This document shows positions 1-27,855 of a stretch of DNA of 64,000 bases, one piece after another. Below the pieces are notes generated by a model. It made no database searches and was not told where the DNA came from. It saw only the letters and a list, made by a program, of their open reading frames with translations. Origin of the DNA: an uncultured Bacteroidales bacterium (lineage in GTDB: Bacteria; Bacteroidota; Bacteroidia; Bacteroidales; GCA-2748055); the NCBI GenBank assembly GCA_963771005.1, contig CAVYRO010000008.1, positions 197,029 to 261,028 of the forward strand, given 5' to 3'. Positions within the stretch are counted from its first letter, which is position 1, and each line of letters begins with the position of its first letter. The position numbers and the translations under genes are program-made.

Positions 1-714
1 ATAATCCGTATTTGTTTCTAAAAATTTAGAAATAGACTCAATACCTATTTTTGTTTTACCAACTCCTGGTGCTCCGGATAATATTATTAAATCTTCTGTT
101 TTCAAGTGATTCAATATTTCCTCAATCTCAGTTTTTCTATGAAGAAACTTATTGTCTAAAGGAGTCGAAAGTTGATTTTCTTTGTTATTGTACTCAGCAA
201 TAAATCTGTCAAATGGCAGTATTTGACCAGTATCAATTGGTATACCTAGGAAATCCTTAGAAAGTAAAATGTACTTTGAAATTATCTCTATTGCCAAAGT
301 ATCAATGCCAATAAGTTCAATCCTTACATTTTTCGAGTTTGCATATGTTTGAATTTGTGTCTCTTCTTCGACTGTCAACCGAGAATTAAAACAAACGATA
401 ATTTGATAAACAAGGTCAGCTGATATCCCTGTTTTAGCAGGGTCTGAACATTTATTAATGTCATCTGAAATTTTGGAAACTTTAGATTCAGCTTGTGTTG
501 TATACTCTATATATGCTAATTTATTATCTGAAAGACGTACAAAACTATCAGGAGTGCCTTGGATAGTCTTTTGTTTACCTAGTTGACTTCCTGTACGATT
601 GAAACTACTATATTCCGTTTCTCTTAAAATTAGATAAGCATCACAAAGATTCTGAAATCCAGCGGGGTCAATCGCGATTAACTTTTGTTCTATGAGTTGT
701 AATCTACCTGTCAT
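1..714 (-). CDS. P-loop NTPase, N-terminal 238 aa only (C-terminus lies beyond the window); N-terminal region of unknown, possibly nuclease-like, fold
   Basis: Manual reverse translation from ATG at 714-712: MTGRLQLIEQKL...HLKTEDLIILSGAPGVGKTKIGIESISKFLETNTDY. Walker A motif is GAPGVGKT. The frame is open to position 1. It is absent from the ORF track because it has no stop in the window. Confidence 0.65.
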   Translation of the reverse strand, partial: MTGRLQLIEQKLIAIDPAGFQNLCDAYLILRETEYSSFNRTGSQLGKQKTIQGTPDSFVRLSDNKLAYIEYTTQAESKVSKISDDINKCSDPAKTGISADLVYQIIVCFNSRLTVEEETQIQTYANSKNVRIELIGIDTLAIEIISKYILLSKDFLGIPIDTGQILPFDRFIAEYNNKENQLSTPLDNKFLHRKTEIEEILNHLKTEDLIILSGAPGVGKTKIGIESISKFLETNTDY

Positions 715-833
715 TTTGTAATCAATCAATTGTGTGATGGCAAAAATTTGGCTCTTTTACAAGCTGAAGCATCAGCAAGTGGGATAGAGCTTGTAAAAGT
801 GCCAAATGTGCGTCGGCTGATTTTTACAATGAA

Positions 834-969
834 TGCCAACGGTCACTTGTATGTGGTCGGGCGGGATTTCGAAGAGAAATCGTGTCAGACCCGCAGGAAA
901 GTGAACAGCAAAGGTCTGACTTGTCAGACCGCTAAAACCCCCGCCTGCCATATACAATTTGTTAGCACC
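834..969 (-). repeat. attC-like recombination site 0
   Basis: TGCCAAC (834-840) ... GTTAGCACC (961-969). Stems are TTGTATGTGG/CCATATACAA and GGGCGGG/CCCGCC. The loop contains GGGATTTCGAAG, which is shared with other sites. Confidence 0.75.
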
Positions 970-971
970 AG

Positions 972-1499
972 TTATTTTTTCTTAATATTCTCAAGTATTT
1001 TAACAACTTCATCGAATGTGTCAATTGAATAACTTACACCTATGACTTGACTAAATTCATTATCGTTTCTTTTTATAAAATAAATTCCGTCTGATTGTCG
1101 AAAACTTGCGCCATTGTCTTGTATATAGTAAAAGCGACCTTGAAGTTCATCTCCATTGAAAATATCCTTGAAACTATCAAGTCTACGATATGTGTCGGGA
1201 AGTGGTTTACTGATAGAATCTCCATAATTAAGAAAAAAAGTTTCTCCTGAAATGGCAAATACTACTTTGTTGTCTTTCCTTTGTTTTGAAAATTGAAAAC
1301 CTTCTTCATTGGGTTGTCGACCAAGTCCCACGTAAGTTTCGGGAAAAGAAATAGTCAGTTCATCATTTAGTTCTTCTTCTATCCAAGCAGTTGAGGATAA
1401 ATTATCATTGTCTTTCTTACAACTTTGAAATAATGTTGTTGCAATAATCAGAACAACTGTCAATAATATTGGAACTTCAATTTTTTTTGTTGGTTTCAT
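972..1499 (-). CDS. Small lipoprotein, unknown function (cassette cargo)
   Basis: 175-aa ORF. N-terminus MKPTKKIEVPILLTVVLIIATTLFQSCKKD has a signal peptide and lipobox Cys. Confidence 0.6.
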   Translation of the reverse strand: MKPTKKIEVPILLTVVLIIATTLFQSCKKDNDNLSSTAWIEEELNDELTISFPETYVGLGRQPNEEGFQFSKQRKDNKVVFAISGETFFLNYGDSISKPLPDTYRRLDSFKDIFNGDELQGRFYYIQDNGASFRQSDGIYFIKRNDNEFSQVIGVSYSIDTFDEVVKILENIKKK

Positions 1500-1556
1500 C
1501 TTGTTTTATTTTTTCATAAAAGATGATTCTTAACATATTTTGGTTGCGTCATAATT

Positions 1557-1689
1557 GGTGCTAACGTTTCGCGTATATGTGACGCAGCTACCTGCGACTG
1601 AGCTTTGTAAGCTAAAGATACATAATTTTTCAGAATTGTTTTATTCGAAGCTGTGATGGTAGCTGTGGCACATATACGCGGTTAGGCAC
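1557..1689 (-). repeat. attC-like recombination site 1
   Basis: GGTGCTAAC (1557-1565), GTTTC, GCGTATATGTGACGCAGCTACC ... GGTAGCTGTGGCACATATACGC, G, GTTAGGCAC (1681-1689). Confidence 0.8.
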
Positions 1690-1696
1690 TGGGCTT

Positions 1697-2401: not shown

Positions 2402-2432
2402 AAAATAATATTTTCGAAGGTTTCATAGCCTT

Positions 2433-2564
2433 GTGCCTAACGTACGAGGCTAAAAACCGGCGGTCAACAGTGCACCACCCCTTAACCTACTAAATTTATT
2501 TTTTTTTGCACTTTCCCCCGAAACTTCCTGTCGCACGCTGGTATTTTAGCCTTTGTTAGAGGCC
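2433..2564 (-). repeat. attC-like recombination site 2a (belongs to ORF-less cassette copy 1)
   Basis: GTGCCTAAC (2433-2441), GTACG, AGGCTAAAAACCGGCGG ... CGCTGGTATTTTAGCCT, TT, GTTAGAGGCC (2555-2564). Near-identical to site 6a. Confidence 0.8.
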
Positions 2565-2807: not shown

Positions 2808-2940
2808 GGCCTCTAACGTTTGACAATATGGCCAGTAAGGGATAGCGGGTGATTTCTTATCACGATACACGAAAAGTTGAAGCGTGCTACAAACCTTCGC
2901 AAACCACCGAAACCCTTATTGGCTATATTGTGTGTTGGCA
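2808..2940 (-). repeat. attC-like recombination site 2b
   Basis: GGCCTCTAAC (2808-2817), GTTTG, ACAATATGGCCAGTAAGGG ... CCCTTATTGGCTATATTGT, GT, GTTGGCA (2934-2940). It overlaps the last codons of the radical SAM ORF. Confidence 0.8.
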
Positions 2941-4000
2941 TTTCGTTGCTTTTTCTATTTTCTCATTATAGCAAACTAATACATTTTTCTTATCTCCATG
3001 CCAATTATGAAATCCATTTCCCTGGCAATCTTTAAATTTTTTGCAAGATTCACATTGACCAACTCTTGTCCAATCCCTATTTCGAAATGGTTGAAATTTG
3101 TTTTCCCAAACCTCATAAAAATTATCCGTATAAATATTTCCTTGAGAAAAAGTCCTATCAATATTGGGACAGGCAGAAATTGAACCATCAATAAGAATTG
3201 AGCCGATATTAATCCCGGCTCTGCAAAAAAAGTATGAATCCCTTACCAATGGCTCATATTTTCCTACATATCCTTCACAACTAAATTTTACATCAATTTC
3301 TTTGGATTTTCGGCTCTCTGCTATAAAATCCATTAATTGAACAAATTGATTGTTAGTTAACAATAATTCTGGATTATGAGCAGCTCTCCCGATAGGAATA
3401 ATTGTAAATAATCTCCATGCCTTGACATTTTTCGAAATTAACAATTCACTAATCTGTTCAAGTTCATTGATATTCTTTTGATTTACACAAGTTACAATAT
3501 CGAAGTTAATTCGATTGGAAGTTGATGCCAATTCAATTGCCTTTATTACTTTATCGAAACTCTTTTCATTATTTCTCAACCAATTATGAGATTCCTTTAG
3601 GCCGTCTAAACTGATTGTTAATGCACCCATTCCAGCATTTAGCAATGAAATATGTCTCTGCTTATCGTATAAATGACCGTTTGAAACTATCGACCATTTA
3701 AAACCATCGTTTTCGCAATTCTTTTCCACAAAGTTCTAAGTCCTTTCGTAAAAGAGGTTCTCCTCCTGTAAATACAATGGTGAAATTTTGTGGTATGCTT
3801 TTTATTGAATCAACTGCCTTAAAAAGAACTTCTGCTGGCATATCTTTATGCATACTATTTTTTGAGCAATCACTCCCGCAATGCAAACAATTCAGATTAC
3901 ATCGTGTAGTACACTCCCAAAATAAGTAATTCAGTTCGTGAAGTTTTATTTCCGAATCTCTAAATTTTCTGAAACTATATTTTTTAAATTTAGTGAGCAT
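2923..4000 (-). CDS. Radical SAM / SPASM-domain enzyme, split by one frameshift near 3700-3730
   Basis: ORF 3698-4000 carries the CxxxCxxC cluster (CNLNCLHC) and GGEPLL. ORF 2923-3729 continues the fold and ends with Cys-rich SPASM-like segments (FFCRAG...SACPN, GQCESCKKFKDCQGNG). The break lies in an A-rich run. Confidence 0.75.
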
Positions 4001-4425: not shown

Positions 4426-4553
4426 TGCCAACGTTTCGCGTATATGTTGCGTACCGTTTACGACAAACGTCGTAAACACGGTTAAGCATAAATTTACGAG
4501 AAATTATTGTAAAGACCGAGGACCCGGTATGCAACATATACGCTGTTAGGCAC
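4426..4553 (-). repeat. attC-like recombination site 3
   Basis: TGCCAAC (4426-4432), GTTTC, GCGTATATGTTGCGTACCG ... CGGTATGCAACATATACGC, T, GTTAGGCAC (4545-4553). Confidence 0.8.
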
Positions 4554-4878: not shown

Positions 4879-5016
4879 GTGCCTAACGTGCGGCGGTTAC
4901 CGTATTTGCCGGCATTCGGAGACGAAAACTTTCATCCGAAATTACTGCCGATTAAATGCTCAAACCTCTAAATACTCAAAAAACCAGGCAATTACGGTTA
5001 CCGCATGTTGTAGGGC
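4879..5016 (-). repeat. attC-like recombination site 4
   Basis: GTGCCTAAC (4879-4887) ... GGCAATTACGGTTACCGCAT, GTTGTAGGGC (5007-5016). Stems are GCGG..TTACCGTA..TTGCC / GGCAA..TACGGTTA..CCGC. Confidence 0.75.
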
Positions 5017-6034: not shown

Positions 6035-6171
6035 GCCCTACAACGTATGGCAATATGCGGAGGCCGGGATTTCGAAGCTCCAACTTATCAAACCGTTACA
6101 ATTTTGAGTAAATGTACAAAAGTTTAAAATACCCACATCCCCCGGCTTACGTATATTGCGTGTTGTGTTGC
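6035..6171 (-). repeat. attC-like recombination site 5
   Basis: GCCCTACAAC (6035-6044), GTATG, GCAATATGCGGAGGCCGGG ... CCCCCGGCTTACGTATATTGC, GT, GTTGTGTTGC (6162-6171). Confidence 0.8.
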
Positions 6172-6179: not shown

Positions 6180-6869
6180 TCATCCATTCTCTTTTATAGC
6201 TCTATTTATCAATTTTGAAATCTTTCTCATCTTTGATTTTCGTCCTTTAATCAACGGTGTATCGCCCTGTTTTCCAATCAAAACGACAAAATATTCGCGA
6301 TAAAATAATCCATAAATGCCAAATAATAATAAAAAGATTCCAATAAAAAATGTTATTGTTATTATCCCGATAATAATCATCACAATACCGATAAAAACAA
6401 AGCTAGAGTTGTCATCCTTTCTTATTGTTGAATTATCAAAGTCAGTTAATTCATAACTTCTCCCACCACAGTTTACATATAATCCATTTAGTACTAAATC
6501 CTTGCTCGTATAAAATATTTTTTTCCGTTTATTCTTCTCTTTTTGTTTTTTTTCTTTTTCCTTTCGTTCAAGTTCATTCAATAAATCATTAACTGAAGAA
6601 TTTCTATAACCACTTTGATTATAGCTCGAACTTGAATTTGAGGAAAAGTAATCTGATGAATTAAATTTTGAATCAAATTGTGCTCTCTTATTATCATCTA
6701 TCAGAATGTCATAAGCTTCCTTAATTTCCTTAAATCGATCTTCAAAGAATTTATCACTATTTTGTTTATCGGGATGAAATTTTGTAGCATAAATTCTATA
6801 TGCTTTTTTAATATCATCCTTTGAGCATTCTGGTAATAATCCAAGTATTTGATAATAATTTTTCAGCAT
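6180..6869 (-). CDS. J-domain (DnaJ-like) protein with C-terminal transmembrane segments
   Basis: N-terminus NYYQILGLLPECSKDDIKKAYRIYATKFHPDKQ carries the J-domain HPD motif. There is a Lys/Glu-rich linker and C-terminal hydrophobic stretches (FVFIGIVMIIIGIITITFFIGIFLLLFGIYGLF). Confidence 0.7.
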   Translation of the reverse strand: MLKNYYQILGLLPECSKDDIKKAYRIYATKFHPDKQNSDKFFEDRFKEIKEAYDILIDDNKRAQFDSKFNSSDYFSSNSSSSYNQSGYRNSSVNDLLNELERKEKEKKQKEKNKRKKIFYTSKDLVLNGLYVNCGGRSYELTDFDNSTIRKDDNSSFVFIGIVMIIIGIITITFFIGIFLLLFGIYGLFYREYFVVLIGKQGDTPLIKGRKSKMRKISKLINRAIKENG

Positions 6870-6900: not shown

Positions 6901-7032
6901 GCAACACAACGTACGAGGCTAAAAACCGGCGGTCAACAGTGCACCACCCTTTAACCCACTAATTTTATTTTTTTTGCACTATCCCCCGAAACTTCCTGTC
7001 GCACGCTGGTATTTTAGCCTTTGTTAGAGGCC
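6901..7032 (-). repeat. attC-like recombination site 6a (belongs to ORF-less cassette copy 2)
   Basis: GCAACACAAC (6901-6910), then sequence near-identical to site 2a, ending GTTAGAGGCC (7023-7032). Confidence 0.8.
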
Positions 7033-7275
7033 GGTTGTATGCGCGCTGGCTGATTGCTGATTTACTTTCCGTTCCCTGTCAGCCCGCTACAACCCTTTGC
7101 ACATTCCCGCCTTTACTCACTGCGAGCGATGGATAATTGAAAACAGAGCGATCGGCCACCTGGCTTTCAAAACATTCTGCCCTAACCATCAACCACTAAC
7201 CTCATTTACCCTTCCGTATGTCCGCAAACCGTGCGTTGGGTAGGCTGTGCCTCACGATAAGGATTTTACTCAACT
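7033..7275 (-). other. ORF-less cassette body, copy 2
   Basis: Aligns with 2565-2807 along its whole length with scattered substitutions. No ORF of 60 aa or more. Confidence 0.6.
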
Positions 7276-7410
7276 GGCCTCTAACGCTCGCAGCTAGGCC
7301 CAGTGCGGGCTTTCGAAGCGATTTCTGTCAAACGAGTAAAAAGTTAATTTGAAAAAATGACATTTGCAAACCACTGAGCTGCCCGCATTGGGTTTAGCTG
7401 TTGTTAGCAA
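7276..7410 (-). repeat. attC-like recombination site 6b
   Basis: GGCCTCTAAC (7276-7285), GCTCG, CAGCTAGGCCCAGTGCGGGC ... GCCCGCATTGGGTTTAGCTG, TT, GTTAGCAA (7403-7410). Confidence 0.8.
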
Positions 7411-7417: not shown

Positions 7418-7750
7418 CTATTCCATCAGTCCCTTTACTTCAAGGTAAAGTGGTGACAACTCTTTTTTTATGATTGCCCAAATCATCGAAGAGTCTACTG
7501 CATCGTAAGCATGTATGATACGATTTCGAAATCCAACAATTTTCCGGGCGTTGAATAGACTTATTTCAGGATGAATCAGGTCGAATTTGTTTACAGCTTC
7601 TCCGATTATTCCTAATTGTCTTTCAACGGCACTTTGAGTTTTCAGATCTTTTACATAATCTGTAAATGAGGAAATGTTGGATGTGAAGTCCTCAATTAAT
7701 TCAATAGCATGAATGATATCATCCAGGTATTTTAACCCCTTTTCCGTCAT
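7418..7750 (-). CDS. hepT: HEPN-domain toxin (DUF86/HepT family) of a HEPN-MNT toxin-antitoxin pair
   Basis: 110-aa ORF with the Rx4-6H HEPN motif (FRNRIIHAYD). It overlaps the 3' end of the upstream nucleotidyltransferase gene. Confidence 0.8.
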   Translation of the reverse strand: MTEKGLKYLDDIIHAIELIEDFTSNISSFTDYVKDLKTQSAVERQLGIIGEAVNKFDLIHPEISLFNARKIVGFRNRIIHAYDAVDSSMIWAIIKKELSPLYLEVKGLME

Positions 7751-8054
7751 AGATTAAAACTTTAGATGAATCAATGCTTTTTCTAAGATATGGGTTTCGA
7801 ATGGATGAATCAGTCAATAAATCGACCTTGGTATGAAAAAACAGTTCAAATGTGTCCCACAAAGAAATTAATTTCTCACCTCTTTCGATTGGATCAGAAG
7901 CGTCAATTTCCACAAGCAAATCAATATCACTTTTTTCTTTATCGAATTTATCAGTCGTCGATGAACCAAAAGCATACAAGTATTTAACATTATGAATTTT
8001 ACACAAATTCAAGAAGTTAATTCTGTCTTTTAATATCTTTTCTCGAATAACCAT
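7719..8054 (-). CDS. mntA: Minimal nucleotidyltransferase (MNT) antitoxin
   Basis: Start taken at ATG 8054-8052 (MVIREKILKD...). The NTase signature is YAFGSSTTDKFDKEKSDIDLLV (GS ... DxD). Confidence 0.75.
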   Translation of the reverse strand: MVIREKILKDRINFLNLCKIHNVKYLYAFGSSTTDKFDKEKSDIDLLVEIDASDPIERGEKLISLWDTFELFFHTKVDLLTDSSIRNPYLRKSIDSSKVLIYDGKGVKIPG

Positions 8055-8119
8055 AAAGCAAAGATAACTGATTTTAAGCAATTGTCAATTTCGTTTATAG
8101 TTTGTTGGTTCTCGGCTGG

Positions 8120-8253
8120 TTGCTAACGGTCGCGTGTATGAGTAGTGGCGGACTTCGAAGCACTTTCCAATCAAGATACACAGAATTTGATGCGAGGCAG
8201 AACACTCGAATACGCTACACCCCCCGCCATTACTTATACACGATGTTGGCGGT
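8120..8253 (-). repeat. attC-like recombination site 7
   Basis: TTGCTAAC (8120-8127), GGTCGC, GTGTATGAGTAGTGGCGG ... CCGCCATTACTTATACAC, GAT, GTTGGCGGT (8245-8253). It overlaps the last 8 codons of the methyltransferase ORF. Confidence 0.8.
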
Positions 8254-9132
8254 AGTTTTGTTTTTTATTAATTTGTATCTTATTGGATTCCAGTCGTTAT
8301 TGGCAGGTTTGTCTAATTTGAAATTGAAAAATAATATCTCGTTACCTTTTCTAATTTTATAAGCAGTATGATTAAATGAATACTCTTTGTTCTCGTATTC
8401 TTTATATAACTTTTTTATTTCAGGAACATTATCGTATGATACAATCCAATTAATCTCTTTTATACTTTTAATCTTTTCGCTTACAATTCTGTGATTTTCA
8501 TCACTATAATGATTCATATATAAAGTACTAGCCTTATGATAGTAAGGAGGGTCAAAATATAAAATGACATTTGAATTGTCAGTTTCCATTTCAATTTTGT
8601 CTATTAATTTTAATGCGTCTTTTTTATATAGTTTTATATCTTTCTTTCGAGAAGCAATTTTTCTAATTCTTTGCTTAATTTCTTCTTTGTTAAATCTACA
8701 GTCGATATTATAATCGCTTTTTTGCTCATATCCACCAATCGGCCCACCATTAATGATACCTGAATGATTTGTTCTATTTAAAAACAATGTAGAGAATCCT
8801 AACTCCAATAAACCAACTTTTTCTTTATAGCTTTGAACCTCTTTTAGCTTAAACCAATTTTCAATAGTAACTTCTGTTTTATCAATAAGTTCGCATAATT
8901 CTTCGCTCTTATTTAAAACAGAATACCAGAAAGCATAAATAGAACGGTCTTTATCATTTATAATCACTTTTTTTACAAAACCTTCAAATAGCAAGAACAA
9001 TGCAACAGATGCACCACCTGCATATGGTTCAACATATAAACCATTAATATTCCTGTCTATGCAAATTTTTGCAATAAATGCAGAGAGTTTGTTTTTCCCC
9101 CCTGGGTATCTAAGTGGCGAATAAAAAATCAT
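8230..9132 (-). CDS. Dam-family (D12 class) N6-adenine DNA methyltransferase
   Basis: 300-aa ORF with N-terminal PLRYPGGK, EPYAGGASV (SAM binding) and catalytic DPPY (ILYFDPPYYH). Confidence 0.85.
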   Translation of the reverse strand: MIFYSPLRYPGGKNKLSAFIAKICIDRNINGLYVEPYAGGASVALFLLFEGFVKKVIINDKDRSIYAFWYSVLNKSEELCELIDKTEVTIENWFKLKEVQSYKEKVGLLELGFSTLFLNRTNHSGIINGGPIGGYEQKSDYNIDCRFNKEEIKQRIRKIASRKKDIKLYKKDALKLIDKIEMETDNSNVILYFDPPYYHKASTLYMNHYSDENHRIVSEKIKSIKEINWIVSYDNVPEIKKLYKEYENKEYSFNHTAYKIRKGNEILFFNFKLDKPANNDWNPIRYKLIKNKTTANIVYK

Positions 9133-10514: not shown

Positions 10515-10583
10515 AATATTTCTATTTATAGAGTTCTTTTTGTCTAGTTAATATATTTAAAAAGAAACTTGTATTGACACCAG

Positions 10584-11351
10584 TTATTCTTTATTTTTAA
10601 CATAAATATGCTTAATATGTGTATTTTCTACTTCTTTCTCTTCTATATCAAAGTGAACATTCAAAGATTTAATTAGTGGAGTAAGTTTCGGGAAACCATA
10701 ATTACGAGAATCAAAATCAGGTTTCTTTTTCATAAGTAGCCCTCCAACTTCAGCAAGAAATGCCCATCCATTATCATCAGCCAAATCACCAATTGTCCCT
10801 TTTAATAACTTAATTAATTCATCATCAATTGTATCAATATCTATAGTTGTTGTTGTAACAGGAATACGAGATTGATTAGTTACAATACTTTCTGTTGTTT
10901 TTATTTCCGATATTCCAATAATTTCAATATAAATAAATTTGTCACATGCAACTATAAAAGGATTTGGAGTCTTTTTTTCACCAATCCCAACAACTAACAT
11001 TCCAGACTCCCTTAATCTAATTGCCAATCTTGTAAAATCACTATCGCTTGAAACAAGACAAAATCCGTCAACTTTCTGGCTATGCAATATATCCATTGCA
11101 TCAATAATCATAGCTGAATCTGTTGCGTTTTTTCCTGTTGTATAACTGTATTGTTGAATTGGTGTTATTGCGTGTTCTAATAAAGCTGGCTTCCATCCTG
11201 ATACAGTTGGTTTTGTCCAGTCTCCATAGATTCTCTTAATAGTTGGAATTCCAAGTTTTGCAATTTCATCTAGCATCCCCTTAATGTTTGAATAAGGAAT
11301 ATTATCTGCATCAATTAATACTGCTAATTTTAAATCATCTTTTTGTCTCAT
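10584..11351 (-). CDS. NYN-domain (PIN-like RNase) protein with C-terminal OST-HTH/LOTUS domain
   Basis: 255-aa ORF. LAVLIDADNIP...GKNATDSAMIIDAMDIL...FCLVSSDSDFTRLAIRLRESG is typical of the NYN fold. The C-terminal GWAFLAEVGGLLMKKKPDFDSRNYGFPKLTPLIKSL is LOTUS-like. Confidence 0.75.
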   Translation of the reverse strand: MRQKDDLKLAVLIDADNIPYSNIKGMLDEIAKLGIPTIKRIYGDWTKPTVSGWKPALLEHAITPIQQYSYTTGKNATDSAMIIDAMDILHSQKVDGFCLVSSDSDFTRLAIRLRESGMLVVGIGEKKTPNPFIVACDKFIYIEIIGISEIKTTESIVTNQSRIPVTTTTIDIDTIDDELIKLLKGTIGDLADDNGWAFLAEVGGLLMKKKPDFDSRNYGFPKLTPLIKSLNVHFDIEEKEVENTHIKHIYVKNKE

Positions 11352-11370: not shown

Positions 11371-11506
11371 ACCGCCAACGGTTGGTGTATGAGGCGTTGG
11401 GCATTTCAACGCACTTCACTGTCAAACCGCTGATATGTTTATAAAATGTACTCATGTTTCAATTAACCACATGCTGCCCAATGACTTATACACATTGTTG
11501 TGCGGT
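11371..11506 (-). repeat. attC-like recombination site 8
   Basis: ACCGCCAAC (11371-11379), GGTTG, GTGTATGAGGCGTTGGGCA ... TGCCCAATGACTTATACAC, ATT, GTTGTGCGGT (11497-11506). Confidence 0.8.
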
Positions 11507-11631
11507 CGTACTTTTTCTTCAGTCAGGGTGGGCAAAGGCATACTCTTTGACAAGTTTTGGTCGTGGGGTTGACTTTTTGCGCGACTTGGCAATGTGTATG
11601 GCTTTAGCGAGGGCATTTCTATTTCTCCGAT

Positions 11632-16867: not shown

Positions 16868-19800
16868 AATTATTTAATAAGGTATCCTGATAAAATGACT
16901 TCACGTTTTTGAAAAGCTTTTTTCGTGCTGTACTGTTTTCAATGGCAATTGCTCGAATGTGTTTTCTTAAAATATTGAGTGCTTCCAATGGGTCGATGGT
17001 TTTTTCCAATTCATTTTTAATGTCCCGGGCAGTGCGTTTTGCCATTGTACCCAGCTACTAAAATATTTTTCACACTTTCTAATAAATTCATCGTCCGAAT
17101 CGGTAAAGCTTTTGACAGTTTTTAAAGATTTATCTTTTAAGCGTTTTTCGATGTATTTTACATTTGAACGCCCGCCGGCGAGTTTTTTGCGGTTCATCGC
17201 CAATGGTGGTGTCCAACTCAAAGCGAGCCCTGTTTGTCTGTAAAAGATGGTAATAATCGTCAGGGATTTTTGCCCTTTTGGTTAAAGGTTTACATTCCAG
17301 ATTATAAACTGCATCAAAAAAAGTAATTTCATCTGAGCTGCCCTTTTTGTTGAGATAGAATTTTTTGAGTTTACCAATCCTGAAAAAAGTAAGTAGTTGA
17401 TTGGCTTCAATTTTTGACTTTTATAAATCCTGAACGGGCTTTTTTAGGTAGGTTTTTTATTTTTTGAAATAAATCAGGATTTTCATCTCTTATTTTTCGC
17501 ATCATTTCCAGATACTTCAATTCCGAATCGCCTTCTTCATCTTCTCCGGTGTAGGCCTTTTTGTTATTCAAGGTGTTAAACAATTCCTGACTTCCAATTT
17601 CTTCGCCATCGGTCAGGTATTTGGCATCTTCACCCAAAATATCATGAAACATCTGGATTTTATTGGTGATGTTCATTTCCAATCCAAGATGTGCATCCGA
17701 TTGTGTTGTTGGGAAGAAATTAAAAATATGCACATTTGTCAAATGCTGACTTCCCAAACGATTCACACGTCCGGCTCTTTGTAGCACTCTGGTTGGATTC
17801 CAGGGCAAATCGTAATTGATAACCACATTTGACCGATGAAGGTTAATTCCTTCAGCCAAAACATCGGTGGCAATCAGAATTCTCAAATCATTAACTTGTT
17901 CTTTTGGTTTTTCTATTTGGGTCGTAATTGGCTTGAATAATATCGCGTGAAACAGTGTGATTTGATGTTAGTTTCAAATCTGAGTGACGTCCGCCTTTAC
18001 TGGAATAAAACATTACCTATTTAGGAAATTCGTTTAGCAAAGCTTCATAAATGTAATCACCTGTTTCTTTTGATTCTGTGAAAATTACAAGCTTATTGTT
18101 CTATTCAAGTGATTTGGTTTTCTTTGATTCAAAAATGAACTGTTCAAGTTTCGGGTCTGAGTCAACAGTTCTGCCATAATTCTTTTACTTGTTTAAAACT
18201 TTTAAATCAAATTCAAGTTTTGTTTTAAAGTCTTTTTTAAAGTCTTTTGAATCATATTTGTTGGCTTTGTCTTCTTCAACCAATTCATCGAGTTTATCAA
18301 TGTCATCATTTCTCAAGCAGGTCGTAAACATCTACTTTTTTGCTGATATAAACTGTTCCAGAATCGAACATTGAGATAAAGTTTTCATAAGAAAGAATAA
18401 AACGGTCAACACTTTGCCGAAAAGCGTAAAAACTACTTTCCAAACGTTTAACAAGAATTCCTTTCATAAATCCTCCAACATTTCGCTGTTGTTGTTTTTC
18501 AAACTCACTTAGCTGCTTTATTTCCAATGTAAAAAAGCAACGGCGTGTATCTGGAATAGGTAAAGTGTGTAGGAGTTTTATCGTTTGCTTTAAAAGTGTT
18601 TTCAAATTCACCTTCGTATTCATATACAATTTTCTGCGGGTCTTTCACATTCAGGAAAAACCAAACCTTGTTTAAGAATATCGCCTTTAAAATAAGTAAC
18701 AACATCTGACCGTGTTCTTCGAACCATGACATATCTTAAAATGTTGTTTTTAATTTCGTTTGAAACTTCTTTAATGAGAATTTTATAAGCAGGGTCATCT
18801 TTTTCAACTTTCTTTAGCTTGGTTCTTAATGAATTAAAAAACTTTTCAAGATTTGGCACTCCGGGAATAGTTGACTGTTTTGGAGCCTGAAATAATTTAA
18901 GTTGTGCAAAAATATCATCAACCGTATTGTTTAAAGGAGTTGCAGTAACAAGAATTACTTTTTTGCCCCGGCAAATATCCAATAAGGTTGGCATATGATT
19001 GTGTGTTTTCATTTCTGAAACGGTGTGCTTCATCCACAACAATATAATCGTATCGTTCTAATCCTTTTTTAATGATGTGTTCCAGTTTACCAAGCGATTC
19101 AACTTCAAAACTTCGGATACCAAAATCAAATAAAGAATCTTTCCAGTAATCCTTTCAACACAGGAGGACAAACAACTAAAGTTCTGCCCTGAATTTGTTG
19201 AAGAAGTAAAGCTGTAATAAATGTTTTACCAAGACCAACAACATCAGCAAGAAAAACGCCATTGTATGCTTCCAGAATTTTCTTTGCCTGAATTGCAGCC
19301 TGACTTTGATATTTTAATTTCATAAATCCATCTGGCAGAAATGGGTCAAACTGGTCTTCCAGATTTATGTCTTCTTCCAAGTATTCATAAATTAATTTCA
19401 GATAAAATTCGTATGGAGTAATTTGATCATTTAACCATGTTTTTGTTGTAATTGTGTCAACAAAATCATCTGAAATATCAACAGATTCATTCCAAAGCTC
19501 ATTAAACTGGTTTTCTGCAAATTTAACATCTAATGTTTTCCTCAACTCAACATTAAATTCTCGGTTTGCCACAAAGCCAGATTCAGAAAAATTACTTGAA
19601 CCAGTAATTACAAAACCATAATCTCTGTCTTCAGGATGGAATCTGCCTATGTAAACTTTTGCATGAATATTTTTTGATGGATAGGCTCTTATTTCTAATT
19701 TTTTTCCATTTCCTCCAATTGCTTTATCATCTGCTGGATTTTTACATTCTTGTTGTAAAAATTCAATAAATTTCCGAATTCCAATTTCTAAGCTTGTTAT

Positions 19801-20143
19801 CATTTTCATCACTTGTTTCAATTTCAGTTTTCAGGTTTGCCTGAAATTGTTTTTTTGTTCTTTGATGCGATTCAAAATCAATCATTCCGATTTGCTCGTG
19901 ATATTGCAAAATATCATAAGAATCTCTGTCAACGCTTAAACCAACAAGTATTCTGACTTTTTCAACAGGTTCAAGTGATTCATACAATTGATAAAAACCA
20001 CTTGCCCTGAAATAACCAACAAGTACATCAAAAAGTTGAGTGTCTTTTAGTGTTGCTTTAAATCGATTTAATAAACTACTTCCATTTTCATTTGTGAAAA
20101 ATGTCAAGTCAGTTTGGTCAATATTATTTGTCTTCTTATCCAT
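16860..20143 (-). CDS. Phospholipase-D-like nuclease domain fused to SNF2-family helicase; heavily fragmented (8 or more frame breaks)
   Basis: 19763-20143 and 19126-19821 give the PLD region ([18 protein letters not shown]) and helicase motif I ([10 protein letters not shown]). 18620-19042 gives [11 protein letters not shown]. 17407-17886 gives helicase-C motifs ([31 protein letters not shown]). Short fragments continue to a stop at 16860. Confidence 0.7.
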
Positions 20144-20156
20144 TAAATTCAGTTAT

Positions 20157-20438
20157 TTACTCGATTGATTTAATTGTTTCTTGTAAACCAATCTTCAAAT
20201 ATTCCAACTCGCCCAGTTCTGTTAAAATCATTGATTTGATAAATTCAATTTGAATTTCCTTTTCCGGTTTGTCAAGTGTATCGGATAGGATTGGAATCAT
20301 TTCGGTCGTTGCACGTCTTTCATTGCGTTCAATCTTGCTTAACAATGAAGTATCAATGTCAAGTGCAGCAGCAACTTTTCTAAGGGGTAATTCTTTGTCT
20401 TCTCTTGCTTTCCGTAAGTATTCACCAAATGATTTCAT
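20157..20438 (-). CDS. XRE-family helix-turn-helix transcriptional regulator
   Basis: 93-aa ORF. FGEYLRKAREDKELPLRKVAAALDIDTSLLSKIERNERR is a canonical HTH_3-type segment. It is the first gene of the 9.1-kb cassette. Confidence 0.8.
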   Translation of the reverse strand: MKSFGEYLRKAREDKELPLRKVAAALDIDTSLLSKIERNERRATTEMIPILSDTLDKPEKEIQIEFIKSMILTELGELEYLKIGLQETIKSIE

Positions 20439-20603
20439 CTTGTCAATTTATTTTAGACGATTCTGTCCAAAAATACATCTTTTTTATTTTGTTTTTCCAT
20501 CAGCGGGTCGGAAAAGATTAAGCTCTTTTGGTTTTTTTAGGGTTGGCATTTTGTGTCGGCAAAAAACCAAATGTGCTTAATGTGCGTGGGGCTTTTTCAG
20601 TAT

Positions 20604-20741
20604 GCCGCACAACGTTTGACAATATGGCAAGTGGCGGTTTGCGGAGCGCGTCTGTATCCACCGTTGAAAAAGTTTGAAGCGGGCTACAATGCCCGAATTT
20701 ACTACTATCCCCGCCATTTGCTATATTGTGTGTTAGGGGGC
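20604..20741 (-). repeat. attC-like recombination site 9
   Basis: GCCGCACAAC (20604-20613), GTTTG, ACAATATGGCAAGTGGCGG ... CCGCCATTTGCTATATTGT, GT, GTTAGGGGGC (20732-20741). Confidence 0.8.
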
Positions 20742-22055: not shown

Positions 22056-22190
22056 GCCCCCTAACGGTGGCAATATGCAAAGTTTGGGATTACGGAGCGA
22101 TTCACTATCAAGCTACACGGCACTTGATGCGAGCCACAACCCTTGAATAACCTATTAAACCCCAATTTTGTATATTGCATGTTGTGTGCC
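22056..22190 (-). repeat. attC-like recombination site 10
   Basis: GCCCCCTAAC (22056-22065), GGTG, GCAATATGCAAAGTTTGGG ... CCCCAATTTTGTATATTGC, AT, GTTGTGTGCC (22181-22190). Confidence 0.8.
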
Positions 22191-22957: not shown

Positions 22958-23093
22958 GGCACACAACGTTTGATGGTATGGTGTCGTGCGGGATTACGAA
23001 GCGATTTCCTATCAGTTTACACCGACTTTTTTTACGAGCCACAAACGCTCGAAAACCTCTGAAACCCGCATGCACTATACCATGTGTTGGCGT
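22958..23093 (-). repeat. attC-like recombination site 11
   Basis: GGCACACAAC (22958-22967), GTTTG, ATGGTATGGTGTCGTGCGGG ... CCCGCATGCACTATACCAT, GT, GTTGGCGT (23086-23093). Confidence 0.8.
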
Positions 23094-23601: not shown

Positions 23602-25067
23602 TTAAACTGTTCCTTCGTAATTTTCACGAATCCTCTTGGTGCTGATTCTGTAATCTTTAATAATCCCTAATTTAATTAATTGTTCAAGATTAATTCTTTT
23701 CGGAAATGAATAATTATAGAAAAAATTAACAATAAACGGTCTATTACGGGGATTAAAATTCCACCATTTTTTAAGCTCATCATTTGTAAAAATACTTCTC
23801 TTCCTACATTTTAAAATAAAATCGTTTTCGTCTTTTATGTCTGTGATTATGTTTTCAACAGTACCAATCGTCGAAATTACACTTTTATATTTACCACCTG
23901 TACGATAAAATATAATCAAATCTCCGGTTTTTAAGCCCTTTTCCCACGAGCGTGAAATGTATGCCTTCCTGATTGCATTTCTATGAAGCTCATTTTCGAC
24001 AAAATCCATTGGAGATTCTGTTGTTAAAATGGAGTCTGGTAATAATTCTGTATGATAATCGGGCCAAATTGGGCATAGGAAAATATTAGTATTACAAGAG
24101 ATATAAGGATATGTTAATTTTGGGTCAATTATATTGAATGCAGGTGAAAAATCCCTTGTGAGGACAATTTCTTCGCCACAACTTGATTTTTTCAGTTCCA
24201 TGTTCGGCAAACCCCCAAGTTTTAAGCATTTCAATTAATCTCTTCTGCTCTTCACGTTTATCAAATATAGTTACATAAATTTCATTGACTTTATTTACAA
24301 CTGCATTATCAAATATTATTTTTAAAAACCTTTCGCCTAATCGAACCCCATTACTCTCAACTTTAAATGTTCCAATTTTAAGTCTCTTTTTGGGTGTAAA
24401 GACAGGTGTAATATCCGAATAATTTTCATCTGTATTTTCAACTTTCACATATAGAAAAGAAAGAACATTTTCTTGGTTTTCTGTAATATATGCGGTTTCT
24501 TCAGATTTTTTATTAAACCAATTATCGAAACCAGGGTAATCCTCTCTGAAACTATCAAAAAAAGTATCTTTTAAGTTTACATTGCCAAATAATTTTTTTG
24601 ATACGCTCAGTACTTTATAATCAACTAAATGAGGATTTTCAGAAACAACTTTTTCTAAAAATGAATTGATGTTAAATACTTTCTCTGAAATGCCAAGCCT
24701 TTCGGCTTTTTTATGTATTTTTTTATCTTCTGTTACAAGTATGTCAGTTCGTCCACAAAATACTTCATTAAGAAGTTGTGTGTCATTTTTATCATTTTCA
24801 TTGTTATCCATCTCCTCCGATACATTTTTAACAGAATCGTCAAGTGGAGCAGTGGTTTGTAATTCGTTATAGCTTTTGAGTTTAATCTTTAAAGTCTCCA
24901 CGGCAGGTTTGTTGGAATTTTTATTTATTTCTTGATATAGTAATCGGATGTATACATTTTGTGTACTTAGCCTTATCCAACCATTTAAAAAGTATACCAA
25001 TATCTCGATTAACAACAGTACTTGTCTCACGGTGAATTATAATATTTGTATCAAGAAGTGCTTTCAT
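23602..25067 (-). CDS. Multidomain protein: N-terminal PIN-like segment, GNAT-like acetyltransferase segment, C-terminal PUA/ASCH-like segment; at least 2 frameshifts
   Basis: Manual translation from ATG 25067-25065 gives MKALLDTNIIIHRE... and later ILVTEDKKIHKKAERLG (PIN-like). The middle region has LKIGTFKV...GVRLGERFLKIIFDNAV...EIYVTIF (GNAT-like). The C-terminal ORF 23602-24234 has KTGDLIIFYRTGG...ISTIGTVENI (PUA-like). All domain calls come from motif resemblance only. Confidence 0.45.
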
Positions 25068-25256
25068 AGATTACGCTTAAATAATTTGTAAGGTATAAAA
25101 TCTTTGTTCAGCGCGTAAGGAAAAAATAGCTCTTTTACCAACAGAAGAAATTGCAAGTGGGTCAGGGTTGGTAAATGTGCTATTTGTGCGCAGGGTTTTC
25201 ATAGCTTTTATTTTATCGAATTACGAAATTTTCCTTCGGAGCCGCTGACAGCATGA

Positions 25257-25386
25257 ACGCTAACGGTCACCGGTAAGTTTCGTTGCCAGGGTTGTTGTGC
25301 TTGTTAAAATCATTAATTATCGTTAATCCGAATTTACGAATTCGGAGCGAACCTGGCAATGAAATTTACCGGATGTTGTGTGGCGT
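25257..25386 (-). repeat. attC-like recombination site 12 (first attC after the attI-like site)
   Basis: ACGCTAAC (25257-25264), GGTCA, CCGGTAAGTTTCGTTGCCAGG ... CCTGGCAATGAAATTTACCGG, AT, GTTGTGTGGCGT (25375-25386). Confidence 0.8.
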
Positions 25387-25393: not shown

Positions 25394-25687
25394 TTAAAAT
25401 ATCCTTTTTATGTTTTTCCGGCTAATATGGAGATAAACAATGGATACTTTAAAATCTACGATATTGTAAAAAATGGTGGTTTGCTTACTTAGAACAGCTT
25501 TTCGGAGGTGGGGATTATAGGTCGAGACAGGAAACATATAAGGATTCTGAATAATCAGTCCAAGCTGTTTATTTAATTTGTGCTTAAAACGATCAATCTC
25601 CTTCTGGGTCGATCGACTTGATAAATAATCTAGAATTTCTTCCAGATTTTTCAGGGATTCATCTGACCAATGAAGTTTATAATCCAT
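25394..25687 (-). CDS. RelE/ParE-family type II toxin
   Basis: 97-aa ORF whose start overlaps the end of a small upstream antitoxin-like ORF. The sequence style (MDYKLHWSDESLKNLEEILDYL...) matches plasmid-stabilisation toxins of Bacteroidota. Confidence 0.65.
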   Translation of the reverse strand: MDYKLHWSDESLKNLEEILDYLSSRSTQKEIDRFKHKLNKQLGLIIQNPYMFPVSTYNPHLRKAVLSKQTTIFYNIVDFKVSIVYLHISRKNIKRIF

Positions 25688-25904
25688 ATTTTTTCTTCAC
25701 TACTTCATGAGGTGTGGTTCTCCCTTGTTTAATGTCCTGTATCCCTCTTTCTATACTTGCCCGCTCATCATCGGAGAGATCATCCCACCAATCATGGCCC
25801 GAAGACCAGGAATCTTTAATAAGTTTTAAATACTCAATAGTCTCTTTATCTTCCAGTTTGGCAAGCCATTCTATCAACTCTAATTTTATTGTTTCCTGTT
25901 CCAT
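25677..25904 (-). CDS. Putative antitoxin of the RelE/ParE pair
   Basis: Start taken at ATG 25904-25902 (MEQETIKLELIEWLAKLEDKETIEYLKLIK...). About 75 aa, overlapping the toxin start by 11 nt. The longer track ORF begins inside the attI-like region. Confidence 0.55.
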   Translation of the reverse strand: MEQETIKLELIEWLAKLEDKETIEYLKLIKDSWSSGHDWWDDLSDDERASIERGIQDIKQGRTTPHEVVKKKYGL

Positions 25905-25966
25905 CACCTTTTTTTTCAAAGTTATGAAATTTTTGGTACTTTTTAATCGATAGGTGCTCTTTGCAT

Positions 25967-26030
25967 GACACACAACGTTTTTATATACGCAATATTACGA
26001 TATATAGATGTATATCGTAATATTGCGTAT
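25967..26030 (-). other. attI-like primary recombination site
   Basis: ACACACAAC (25967-25975), GTTTT, then a perfect 21-bp inverted repeat TATACGCAATATTACGATATA (25983-26003) / TATATCGTAATATTGCGTATA (26010-26030) around TAGATG. It has only one AAC/GTT box, no second box on the recombinase side, and is the last site before the recombinase gene. Confidence 0.6.
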
Positions 26031-26265
26031 AATATCTCCTGTCTGAAACTTTTAAAATTTTTCTGAACTACACGATGATCCTGTTTCCCTTTCCTTGTCC
26101 ACCCCCCCAGTGCTTTTCCTGTTTTTTGATTTATATGTCACTGTAAAACACTATCTTAAGGAAACCCGGTCGAATAAATCCTAAATGCTTCTTTCATTAC
26201 AGGTCCACTTAAAGCTAAAGGAAAAATTCCGAATTTCCAACCTTTGGCCGGAATTTCCTCCAACC

Positions 26266-27855
26266 TCACCCGATATCCAACTCATCAAAAGGATTTTTTT
26301 CATCCGTGTTTTTACGGCTGGTTACATGGGTGTATATTTCGGTGGTCTTGATGCTGCTGTGTCCCAACTTTTCCTGCAATGCCCTTATGTCCTTCGTCAG
26401 TTCGTAATCGTGCGTCGCAAAAGTATGCCTTACTTTATGAGGAGTTATGTCCTTATCGACGCCGGCCCGCACGGCTGCACGCTTCACAACTTTCTCAACA
26501 CTCCCTCGTGAATATTTCCCGCCGTTCATTCCTTCAAAAAGATATACCGAAGGCTTGTACCGTTCCATATATTTCTCGTAAAAAGGATCAAATTTCGCCG
26601 GAATGGGCACATAACGCTCCTTCCTTCCCTTGCCCATTATCAACAATTGCCGCCTTTCCCAGTCAAAATGGTCAAGTTTGCAGTCCAGGACTTCGGCTAA
26701 TCTCATCCCGGTAGCATATAATATTATGATCAGGGTCTTATGCTTGATGTTTCGGGTAACCTCAATCATCTTCTTTATCTCATCGGTATTCAGGAACTTC
26801 GGTAAAGTTTTTCCCAATTTGGGCCGGTCAATGAAATAAAATTTTCTTTCCCCGCCTTTGACTTTCTCATAATAAAACTTAATGGCATTGATGGCCAGAT
26901 TCAGGGTTGATTCAGAAACATTCCTCTCCACATTTAGATACATCAGAAATGACCTTATCTCATCTTCCGTGATCTTATCAATCTCTACTGTGTCGAAAAA
27001 ATTAATAAACTCCGTAAACATGGAAGTATAATTCCTGCAGGTATTCTTACTGTACCTTAACTCTTTCAGCTTGAAGATATACGTATCCGGACAGGGCCGG
27101 AAATTTTCAATCTCATCCCTTCTCTTTCTTTTTTTAACGGGTCCCCCCTTTACATCCTCTATGCAGGAAAAGGATTTTCCTAAAGCCGTGATAATGTTCT
27201 GCAATTGCCTGAGAAACAGTTCAGAAAAAGGGATTGAAAAGCATTTGTTCATTTTGTCATACTTCCAGTATGGGAATTCTTTGATTTTCTTGATTAAATC
27301 TTTGTTGTACTTACCGATAATCTTTAATCTGCCCGATGCAGTCCTGACGATCCGGATATCGGTATCAAATGCCGGGGACGAAATTTCATCTTCCTTCATT
27401 AATTCCGCATCCTTTAACCTGGTTCCAAAGTAGGATCGGATTTTATCAAGATTAGTTCCGAAATTTGTCACCTGCCAAAGCCTGTTCGTCCAATCCCAGT
27501 TGCTGTATCTAATTAATTCCTTGATGAACCGGAGGTCAGCTTCATTTTTCTCCATTTTAACCAGGATCTTTTTTTCAAAAACCTGCATAAGAACTGGCTC
27601 TGAACCTTCCGGATCCCCCTCCTTTTCCTTAGGTTTATCTGTAGAGGAGGCACTTTTTTCCTGATATTCAAGATTTGGAAACATCCTCTTTATCTCACTG
27701 AAGGCTTCACGCGTATACGGAATATGCCACGATCTATACGTCTTGCTCCAGGTACAACCTTTGATCGTCTTTATTTTTTCTTTTGTGGAAGTATCATAGG
27801 GGAATTTCAGAAGTATACGATACTCTCCGTGATGCAGGATTTTTTCCAGTTCCAT
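26266..27855 (-). CDS. Tyrosine site-specific recombinase (XerC/D-like catalytic domain) with a 240-aa N-terminal extension of three related modules
   Basis: 529-aa intact ORF. Catalytic motifs are ATGMRLAEV (Arg), GKGRKER (Lys), HKVRHTFAT (HxxR) and LGHSSIKTTEIYTHV (His, Tyr). The SAM-like core-binding segment is YSKNTCRNYTSMFTEFINFF...STLNLAINAIKFYY. Only 58 aa lie between GKGRKER and HKVRH by my count. Confidence 0.9.
   Translation of the reverse strand: MELEKILHHGEYRILLKFPYDTSTKEKIKTIKGCTWSKTYRSWHIPYTREAFSEIKRMFPNLEYQEKSASSTDKPKEKEGDPEGSEPVLMQVFEKKILVKMEKNEADLRFIKELIRYSNWDWTNRLWQVTNFGTNLDKIRSYFGTRLKDAELMKEDEISSPAFDTDIRIVRTASGRLKIIGKYNKDLIKKIKEFPYWKYDKMNKCFSIPFSELFLRQLQNIITALGKSFSCIEDVKGGPVKKRKRRDEIENFRPCPDTYIFKLKELRYSKNTCRNYTSMFTEFINFFDTVEIDKITEDEIRSFLMYLNVERNVSESTLNLAINAIKFYYEKVKGGERKFYFIDRPKLGKTLPKFLNTDEIKKMIEVTRNIKHKTLIIILYATGMRLAEVLDCKLDHFDWERRQLLIMGKGRKERYVPIPAKFDPFYEKYMERYKPSVYLFEGMNGGKYSRGSVEKVVKRAAVRAGVDKDITPHKVRHTFATHDYELTKDIRALQEKLGHSSIKTTEIYTHVTSRKNTDEKNPFDELDIG

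Follow-up and report, generated by a model that had tools for sequence, protein, structure and literature searches.

The question raised by the 64-kb stretch of DNA analysed here (contig CAVYRO010000008.1 of assembly GCA_963771005.1, from an uncultured Bacteroidales bacterium; its full length is called the window below) is whether its left part is an integron, and whether the tyrosine recombinase encoded there is the enzyme that runs it. Nearly all long open reading frames (ORFs) of the left 28 kb lie on the minus strand, and the original prediction, made from the sequence alone, had described them as an integron-like cassette array next to a recombinase that is not a classical integron integrase. 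We consider it highly probable that this is a sedentary chromosomal integron-like cassette platform, composed of a recombinase that groups in a rough tree as sister to the integron integrase IntI, an attI-like site and at least 16 co-oriented cassettes, and our verdict is that the platform is functional or recently functional and of a distinct class. Its three components are the following:

1-25977, minus strand: cassette array, 15 complete cassettes and a partial 16th
25966-26040, minus strand: attI-like site, with a perfect 21-bp inverted repeat at 25984-26031 and the first-cassette junction at 25975-25978
26266-27855, minus strand: tyrosine recombinase of 529 residues, co-oriented with the cassettes

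The argument begins with the palindromes that separate the minus-strand gene groups. Fifteen polar hairpin sites, reading AAC...GTT on the plus strand, lie between these groups from 838 to 25377, and the constant architecture that had been ascribed to them was borne out by a seed-based scan, by alignment and by a covariance model built from the 15 window sites (R1). The length of 128-138 bp given in the original prediction holds once flanks are included, whereas from AAC to GTT the sites measure 116-126 bp. They are located as follows:

838-963, plus strand: attC-like site 1 (seed-based scan, R1 match)
1563-1683, plus strand: attC-like site 2 (seed-based scan, R1 match)
2439-2557, plus strand: attC-like site 3 (part of a duplicated cassette)
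2815-2936, plus strand: attC-like site 4 (seed-based scan, R1 match)
4430-4547, plus strand: attC-like site 5 (seed-based scan, R1 match)
4885-5009, plus strand: attC-like site 6 (seed-based scan, R1 match)
6042-6164, plus strand: attC-like site 7 (seed-based scan, R1 match)
6908-7025, plus strand: attC-like site 8 (near-identical copy of site 3)
7283-7405, plus strand: attC-like site 9 (alignment, flank rule, R1 match)
8125-8247, plus strand: attC-like site 10 (seed-based scan, R1 match)
11377-11499, plus strand: attC-like site 11 (alignment, flank rule, R1 match)
20611-20734, plus strand: attC-like site 12 (seed-based scan, R1 match)
22063-22183, plus strand: attC-like site 13 (seed-based scan, R1 match)
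22965-23088, plus strand: attC-like site 14 (seed-based scan, R1 match)
25262-25377, plus strand, which is the folding strand: attC-like site 15 (seed-based scan, R1 match)

From AAC-G the common layout proceeds through 4-5 nt that stay unpaired to an AT-rich box, which has the form GTATATG or GCAATAT in the window sites and is of the TATG / (T)ATA kind in the alignment. A GC clamp and the loop come next, then the complementary arm, a further 1-2 nt and (T)GTT. AAC-G and T-GTT are invariant across the alignment of the 15 sites (A2), and AAC and GTT are near-invariant in 47 sites of other genomes, where the flanking bases fit YAAC and GTTR. An attC site is by definition an imperfect palindrome with an R'' box RYYYAAC and an R' box GTTRRRY, conserved in structure more than in sequence, and the sites found here correspond to this description. 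RNAalifold on the 15 sites gave 20 pairs, 13 of them with compensatory changes, and in the 47 independent sites such changes were found in all 15 pairs of the L stem. In the 47-site alignment 93.5% of the cells are paired, compared with 67% when shuffled and at most 51% with the partner column slid, a figure that is somewhat favoured by the fitting of this alignment to R1. The loops had been described as related, and they are, in that the motif GGGATTTCGAAGC occurs in about half of the 15 window sites.

On their plus strand the 15 window sites reach R1 scores of 82-125 bits, as against 12 bits or less on the minus strand, and R1 found no further copy in the 64 kb, including a run over 1-30000 with filters off. 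The window sites are therefore genuine, have a strong polarity and are limited to the array. The original prediction had named a scattering of the same palindromes at ordinary operon ends, with no complementarity between the flanks of consecutive copies, as a finding that would speak against it. R1 gave no hit in the 36 kb of host DNA at 28-64 kb, and consecutive copies obey the flank rule described below. Rfam at gathering thresholds gave 0 hits in the window, and no such family is present in Rfam. The location of the sites at gene 3' ends and their strong hairpins might suggest ordinary intergenic repeats, similar to repetitive extragenic palindromes (REP) or miniature inverted-repeat transposable elements (MITE), or operon-end terminators with no role in recombination. 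This is scarcely credible in view of their absence from the host flank, their strict polarity, the cassette-specific flank rule, a duplicated unit that ends exactly at AAC triplets, the linkage to one recombinase family and the replacement of first cassettes at attI. The single orientation of the sites, the flank rule and the link to attI turnover led us to reject not only REP or terminator repeats but also inversion by a shufflon-type system and an Xer/dif system.

The flank rule states that the bases outside AAC and GTT are specific to each cassette and complementary across it. The 10 nt past the GTT of the left site were compared with the 10 nt in front of the right site's AAC, the latter read as reverse complement, and 13 of the 14 inter-site junctions proved to be perfect over the first 9-10 nt, as had largely been seen by eye before; most of them match at 12 of 13 nt, and the chance expectation is about 4^-7 per junction. 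The exception is the junction between sites 14 and 15 (GTTGGCGT vs GTTAGCGT, 7 of 8), and the junction between sites 11 and 12 matches at 9 of 10 nt. Both values had been given correctly in the original prediction, whereas the flank on the attI side (GTTGTGTGGC vs GTTGTGTGTC) matches at 9 of 10 positions and not at 8 of 10. A mismatch that recurs at flank position 11, G vs A, would be a G.T wobble if the plus strand folds and a C.A mismatch if the minus strand folds. In other genomes the rule is obeyed by all nine junctions of the locus L026, by those that were read in L015, L019 and L029, and by part of those in L008.

Flank complementarity alone cannot pick the end of the site at which the crossover takes place, but a duplicated cassette can, because its boundaries fix the mobile unit. 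The segment that begins with AAC at 2439 and closes with AACG at 2818 is ~93% identical to 6908-7286; the identity begins at the AAC of sites 3 and 8 and stops after the AAC-G of sites 4 and 9, the hairpins of which differ. The mobile unit is a hairpin together with the DNA to its right on the plus strand or, in gene orientation, the cargo followed by its own site. As the duplicate is bounded at AAC triplets, the crossover lies in the plus-strand AAC, which is G/TT of the coding strand (the slash marking the crossover), and this is the opposite end of the site from the plus-strand GTT to which it had first been assigned. Flank rule and duplicated cassette together show the organisation of integrons, where the crossover at G/TT leaves every cassette with an R'' box and the distal portion of an R' box that are its own. 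The crossover polarity is that of a classical integron, and the plus (non-coding, 'bottom') strand is accordingly the one expected to fold. With 15 complete cassettes and one partial (16th) cassette at the left edge, the array agrees with the 16 or more cassettes predicted, and since the partial cassette lies at the window edge, the array extends past the window. The 9.2-kb segment between sites 11 and 12 was treated as one cassette; searched by R1 with its filters switched off, it showed no degenerate sites.

Of the 15 window sites, 13 form a more stable hairpin on the plus than on the minus strand (Wilcoxon p=0.005), as do 35 of the 47 sites elsewhere (p=5e-5). Their R stem is 10-13 bp long, the spacer has 4-5 nt on the 5' arm vs 1-2 nt on the 3' arm, and the L stem is continuous, with G.T wobbles in place of bulges and no bulged L-box base seen. 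In a canonical attC the R box has 7 bp, the unpaired central spacer is roughly symmetric and the L box contains extrahelical bases; the window sites do not have this fine structure. A motif scan of the true IntI loci L046, L048, L058, L068 and L069 gave one clear canonical attC (L068, 61-119), with spacers of 5 vs 7 nt.

In the mechanism that we propose, the non-coding plus strand of each site would fold into a long imperfect hairpin, in which YAAC-G pairs with T-GTTR and the R box is extended to 10-13 bp through the cassette-specific bases. An asymmetric internal loop of 4-5 vs 1-2 nt would part this R box from the AT-rich L box. The recombinase would cut in the 5' AAC of the plus strand (G/TT on the coding strand) and exchange this strand with attI or another attC, with the outcome that circular cassettes are excised and inserted at attI. 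The choice of the strand would come from the asymmetric loop and the conserved G.T wobbles, which are C.A mismatches on the other strand, and not from extrahelical bases of the IntI type.

The attI-like site reads TATACGCAATATTACGATATA-CATCTA-TATATCGTAATATTGCGTATA-TAAAAAC/GTTGTGTGTC on the minus (top) strand, the slash marking the junction, and is found ~290 bp downstream of the recombinase stop codon. Its palindrome holds a GCAATAT / CGTATA motif, the same as the L box of several attC sites. Like palindromes, followed by GTTR and a cassette-type flank, lie downstream of the homologous recombinase in L008, L019, L020, L082, L084 and L086, and in attI regions one box is repeated both directly and in inverted form, as with ATAAACGCAA, of which L082 has two copies. 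An attI beside the integrase that acts as insertion point, as in integrons, is seen in related loci, and the window has the equivalent palindrome and AAC/GTT junction. The recombinase P0029 (542 residues, Chitinophagales) is encoded in three samples, L081, L082 and L083, that have the upstream genes in common. Over 11,810 nt, up to ...TTGCGTTTATACAAAT, these are identical save for 3 single-nucleotide polymorphisms, and from there on they carry entirely different first cassettes, those of L082 and L083 both opening with GTTA. Similarly, L084 and L085 (recombinase P0040) are identical up to ...TTTCGGTGTTA and then differ. In both of these species the divergence sets in directly behind GTTA of the attI junction. 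The replacement takes place ~180-240 bp downstream of the recombinase gene in both groups, and first-cassette variation falls at the predicted insertion point, which provides the cassette-wise variation between related genomes that had been proposed as a check. L086 and L087 differ as well, but within a gene and not at a site, and this pair was left out of the cassette variation.

Which enzyme recombines these sites is the next question, and the adjoining gene is the obvious candidate. The core of its product (residues ~255-529) consists of a SAM-like core-binding domain and a Phage_integrase catalytic domain (Pfam Phage_integrase, 127 bits), and the catalytic set R385, K, H473xxR476, H499 and Y508 is invariant or nearly so in 20 homologs. 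None of the Xer equivalog models of NCBIfam is passed, as XerA_Arch gives 219.1 bits (cut-off 220), XerC 186 (335) and XerD 173 (330). By sequence, the best solved relatives are the archaeal Xer 4a8e and VchIntIA 2a3v, with the XerA-side matches in the PDB including 5hxy, and the top fold match in Foldseek is VchIntIA 2a3v (E=1.8e-15). In a neighbour-joining tree of the core, the recombinase family is sister to the true IntI proteins with the insertion (Vibrio L069 and others), and XerC/D-like proteins stand apart. The insertion itself is lacking: a gap of ~42-45 residues lies opposite VchIntIA residues ~197-245 in BLASTP and MAFFT alignments, the alignments to TIGR02249 and PRK15417 are split in two at the insertion, with breaks at model positions 181 and 194, and the segment in this region has 25 residues vs 67-68 in true IntI. 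The original prediction that the recombinase is not a classical IntI was right in this respect.

Several points weigh against the view that this protein and the array form an integron-like platform. The recombinase stays below the IntI cut-offs (TIGR02249, 180 vs 265; PRK15417, 121 vs 435), and the IntI-specific additional domain around patch III, by which an IntI is defined (Messier & Roy 2001) and on which the intI_Cterm test of IntegronFinder is based, is absent. The tree is neighbour-joining, midpoint-rooted and without bootstrap; the VchIntIA sequence used for it and for the alignments falls close to the Vibrio IntI of L069, and its results are in line with those from PDB and NCBIfam. Recombination by the protein of 26266-27855 is something that we infer, and a canonical IntI may be encoded outside the 64-kb window. 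Cassette turnover between samples was seen in other species and not in the window genome; an exact-match metagenome scan for the window attI palindrome returned nothing, and no sister strain of the window genome was found in it. The predicted active or recently active state is supported by the variation in those other species and is presumed for the window genome.

The most direct use of these points would be to regard the array as an ordinary CALIN (cluster of attC sites lacking an integron integrase), left by or served in trans by a canonical IntI elsewhere, and the adjoining recombinase as an unrelated Xer or mobile-element integrase. CALINs are common (PMC9024848), the view taken here is limited to 64 kb of the genome, the recombinase is nearly at the XerA cut-off, and the insertion that it lacks is reported in PMC9668308, with a citation of Messier & Roy 2001, to be essential for IntI activity. 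We nevertheless regard this as very improbable. The adjacency of recombinase, attI and array, with their distance and orientation, recurs in more than 12 genomes from several orders and phyla, first cassettes are replaced ~180-240 bp downstream of the recombinase gene, and attI palindrome and attC L box have a motif in common. In addition, the site geometry is unlike that of the one canonical attC beside a true IntI (L068), and the recombinase family is the IntI sister group in the tree. An array such as this one resembles a CALIN, a category of IntegronFinder, in being attC-like without a protein that passes the IntI-specific test, and it differs in the physical linkage to a conserved IntI-related recombinase and an attI-like site in many genomes; because of this linkage the window array is not an orphan or degraded one. 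Existing pipelines would probably label it a CALIN, if their attC model fires.

An integron-like platform run by its own recombinase, which we prefer, leaves the N-terminal part of this protein to be explained. Residues 1-235 form three beta-beta-alpha-beta-beta-alpha repeats in a confident AlphaFold2 (AF2) model (pLDDT 83.7), and such repeats are absent from the IntI sequences compared (VchIntIA, L048 and L069). The Pfam model HARP (PF07443) matches the homologs P0027, P0038 and P0029 with 23.9-26.4 bits, about its cut-off of 25, and P0062 with 17.8 bits. Foldseek with the N-terminal region gave weak matches (E>=0.05) to the HARP domain of SMARCAL1 (26% identity), the XPB damage-recognition domain and MutS domain I, which are structure-specific DNA-binding modules. 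Speaking against the HARP assignment are its weak Foldseek E-value of 0.34, the lack of any Pfam HARP match at E<=0.1 for the window recombinase and the fact that repeat-free recombinases (L014, L035) also adjoin arrays. The existence of such repeat-free members shows that the repeats are not essential to the system. Both the assignment and the role of the repeats are tentative. Speculatively, they could contribute to the recognition of a folded or branched substrate, or of arm-type repeats within attI.

It is possible, although we would not favour it, that the recombinase runs the array and its core alone reads the hairpin, whereas the repeats are attI arm-type or accessory DNA-binding modules, or protein-protein or regulatory ones. 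The weak structural HARP match, the existence of repeat-free members beside arrays, a repeat number that varies from 0 through 1 and 2 to 3 across the array-linked family, and the attI regions with direct or inverted repeats of one box would all be consistent with this. In the other direction, HARP, XPB damage recognition and MutS are the sole recurring theme among the matches, all of them structure-specific binders, and Pfam HARP is about at its cut-off in three homologs.

A protein search with the recombinase returned 961 relatives at E<=1e-10; the best 120 of these are mostly full-length with ~40% identity, and the few named sources among these 120 are Bacteroidales, Chitinophagales, Thermonemataceae and similar. 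The N-terminal region alone matched 686 clusters (50% identity) at E<=1e-3. Many contigs stop just past the recombinase gene, as expected if repeats break assemblies. The covariance search of related genomes that the original prediction had recommended was carried out with R1, and arrays were found beside homologous recombinases in four orders, the Flavobacteriales, Cytophagales, Chitinophagales and Bacteroidales, always downstream of the gene and on the strand opposite to its coding strand. Array loci of this kind are:

L003: Aquiflexum
L004: Bacteroidales
L008: Flavobacteriaceae
L015 and L020: Flavobacterium
L019: Polaribacter
L024: Bacteroidetes
L026: Algibacter onchidii (10 sites)
L081 and L082: Chitinophagales
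L086 and L087: two further array loci

The R1 matches of the Ignavibacteriota locus L035 are weaker, and its junctions break the flank rule or follow it incompletely; in the Gemmatimonadaceae locus L029 a motif scan found a seven-site array beside a one-repeat recombinase. None of the array-linked recombinases has the IntI insertion. The recombinase gene runs in the same direction as the cassettes in the window and in all array loci of Bacteroidota, Ignavibacteriota and Gemmatimonadota found, and not divergently as is usual for intI, which has the promoter Pc within it or nearby. Arrays of 2-15 sites adjoin the recombinase gene in many genomes, and not the single dif site without array that marks an Xer.

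On this basis we lean, with some reservation, towards an undescribed and widespread integron class of the Fibrobacteres-Chlorobi-Bacteroidetes (FCB) group, present in Bacteroidota and, on weaker or single-locus grounds, in Ignavibacteriota, Calditrichota and Gemmatimonadota. It would be characterised by an IntI-sister integrase that never had or has lost the additional domain, by a distinct folded attC with asymmetric loop, G.T wobbles and extended R box, in many cases by fused N-terminal repeats with a weak resemblance to HARP that assist in its recognition, and by arrays that serve as banks of anti-phage defence and toxin-antitoxin genes. No description of this association of recombinase and array was found in open-access papers and bioRxiv.

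In the Calditrichales locus L014 (747-8673) the sites lie upstream of a 280-residue recombinase and on its own coding strand, which is the classical divergent layout and unlike the co-oriented Bacteroidota loci; this recombinase has neither an N-terminal repeat nor the IntI insertion. Inside the arrays of L086 (14943-17016) and L087 (7779-9852) there is an IS91-type (Y2 transposase) gene with a second short tyrosine recombinase in opposite orientation.

Compared with sedentary chromosomal integrons, such as the superintegron of Vibrio cholerae, the locus is alike in combining a tyrosine recombinase, an attI-like site and a long one-directional array. The cassettes likewise end in imperfect palindromes of the YAAC...GTTR form with cassette-specific R-box halves and a G/TT crossover on the coding strand, the stem is kept by covariation rather than by sequence, and folding is biased to the bottom strand. 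First cassettes are replaced at attI between strains, the cargo consists of toxin-antitoxin, defence and small-ORF genes, and VchIntIA is the closest solved structure to the recombinase core. The locus differs from integrons in the lack of the additional domain, which is treated as defining for IntI (PMC9668308; PMC8138268), and in the 0-3 N-terminal repeats with their weak resemblance to HARP. Further differences are the R box extended to 10-13 bp with its conserved G.T wobble, the asymmetric R/L spacer (4-5 vs 1-2 nt) with the larger side on the arm of the presumed cleavage site, the attI that is a long perfect palindrome, and the missing L-box bulge. The hosts are Bacteroidota and neighbouring phyla, in which complete integrons are reported to be almost absent; for Bacteroidetes only In0 elements were known at first, followed later by one complete integron in Salinibacter (PMC9024848). 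The co-orientation of recombinase and cassettes is shared with the 'inverted integrase' integrons of Treponema and others, where intI is co-oriented with the cassettes (PMC4889954). With archaeal XerA and bacterial XerC/D the recombinase has the domain architecture of the core and a similarity in sequence in common, whereas Xer proteins act on a single dif site in dimer resolution and have neither arrays of hairpin sites nor N-terminal repeats. SMARCAL1, XPB and MutS mismatch-binding domains are among the best though weak structural matches of the repeats, but here the match is non-significant and the repeats are fused to a tyrosine recombinase, not to a helicase or ATPase. We would describe the system as integron-like in its working but leave it outside the family that IntI defines, since it lacks the additional domain and its sites also differ in fine structure.

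Integrons are defined by an IntI with the additional domain, and surveys on that basis report almost no complete integrons in Bacteroidota (PMC9024848). If the linked recombinase runs these arrays, gene capture of the integron type would be far wider than current tools report, and many 'CALINs' or unannotated arrays may be complete systems. The IntI insertion would then not be the sole route to the recombination of folded single-stranded sites, which bears on the evolution of structure-specific recombination and of integrons from Xer-like ancestors. Environmental and host-associated Bacteroidota would also contain a large and hidden stock of mobile cassettes for defence and toxin-antitoxin systems, and there would be a new pair of recombinase and site with built-in strand selectivity for study and engineering.

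The cargo of the window array, for the most part toxin-antitoxin and anti-phage defence modules, resembles that reported for sedentary integrons (bioRxiv 10.1101/2024.07.02.601686), and many of its small ORFs are without a family match. The recognisable genes and cassettes are:

25394-25973, minus strand: ParE-like toxin and partner, in first position
23602-25030, minus strand: PDC-M11A candidate defence gene, in two ORFs
11500-20610, minus strand: 9.2-kb multigene cassette with a helix-turn-helix (HTH) protein, a fragmented phospholipase D (PLD)/SNF2 helicase, a type IIG/DrmMI-like methylase and an SMC-like ATPase
8230-11351, minus strand: PD-Lambda-5 A and B with a NYN-LOTUS protein
7418-8081, minus strand: HepT/MNT toxin-antitoxin pair
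6180-6869, minus strand: DnaJ-domain protein
2923-4000, minus strand: radical SAM/SPASM gene, split

Some ORFs run into the sites, as had been noted before: the stop of ORF 8230-9132 lies in the site at 8125-8247 and that of ORF 2923-3729 in the site at 2815-2936. Cargo of related arrays includes a Cass2-domain protein in L081 and, in L082, a 7.4-kb unit with type I restriction-modification and DarTG that has a site at each end, and large multigene units can be cassettes, too. An intact homolog of the 9.2-kb cassette is located in the Chitinophagales array L081 (17669-21629), where it starts right after a site; the HTH proteins are 65% identical, and the first 400 nt are ~70% identical from near the cassette boundary. 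This comparison suggests that whole defence systems move between orders as single cassettes. The duplicated cassettes mentioned above are 258 bp long (2558-2814 and 7026-7282, ~93% identical), contain no ORF in any frame, are higher in GC than the neighbouring cassettes and each possess a near-identical attC site. They may be non-coding, with a small RNA or regulatory function; an exact 40-mer from them had no match in the metagenome collection.

The left 28 kb of the window have a GC content of 30-36% and the remainder one of ~50%. The right-hand flank is an ordinary Bacteroidota polysaccharide-utilisation locus with an extracytoplasmic function (ECF) sigma factor, a FecR anti-sigma factor, a SusC-type receptor and SusD. 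Split genes and overlapping ORFs are found in this host flank at 31210-36385, where the SusC-like gene has been broken into four parts and SusD into two, and split genes occur within the array at 2923-4000 (radical SAM/SPASM), 15836-19821 (PLD/SNF2 helicase) and 23602-25030 (PDC-M11A). As host genes are also affected, the splits may be indel errors of the assembly rather than pseudogenisation or decay.

A second conserved hairpin of ~55 nt, of the form GCTCTTTT-stem ... stem-AAATGTGC on the attC-folding strand, is present in the window at 751-802, 20522-20576 and 25129-25180, and further copies are those of L081 (17691-17744), L083 (11848-11899), L084 (11980-12031), L014 (8524-8585) and L020 (14257-14310). 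Its distance from an attC site is 30-80 nt and, seen in the direction of the genes, it occupies the 5' end of the cassette that follows. The 1.43 Mb examined contained 8 copies, every one on the attC-folding strand of an array-bearing locus. A role as promoter, insulator or element of the 5' untranslated region is conceivable. Upstream of the first cassette gene, ~12 nt before its likely ATG (~25904), the minus strand of 25900-25930 contains TAACTTTG. The -7 promoter consensus of Bacteroidota is TAnnTTTG, and TAACTTTG fits it, so that the first toxin-antitoxin cassette may carry its own promoter.

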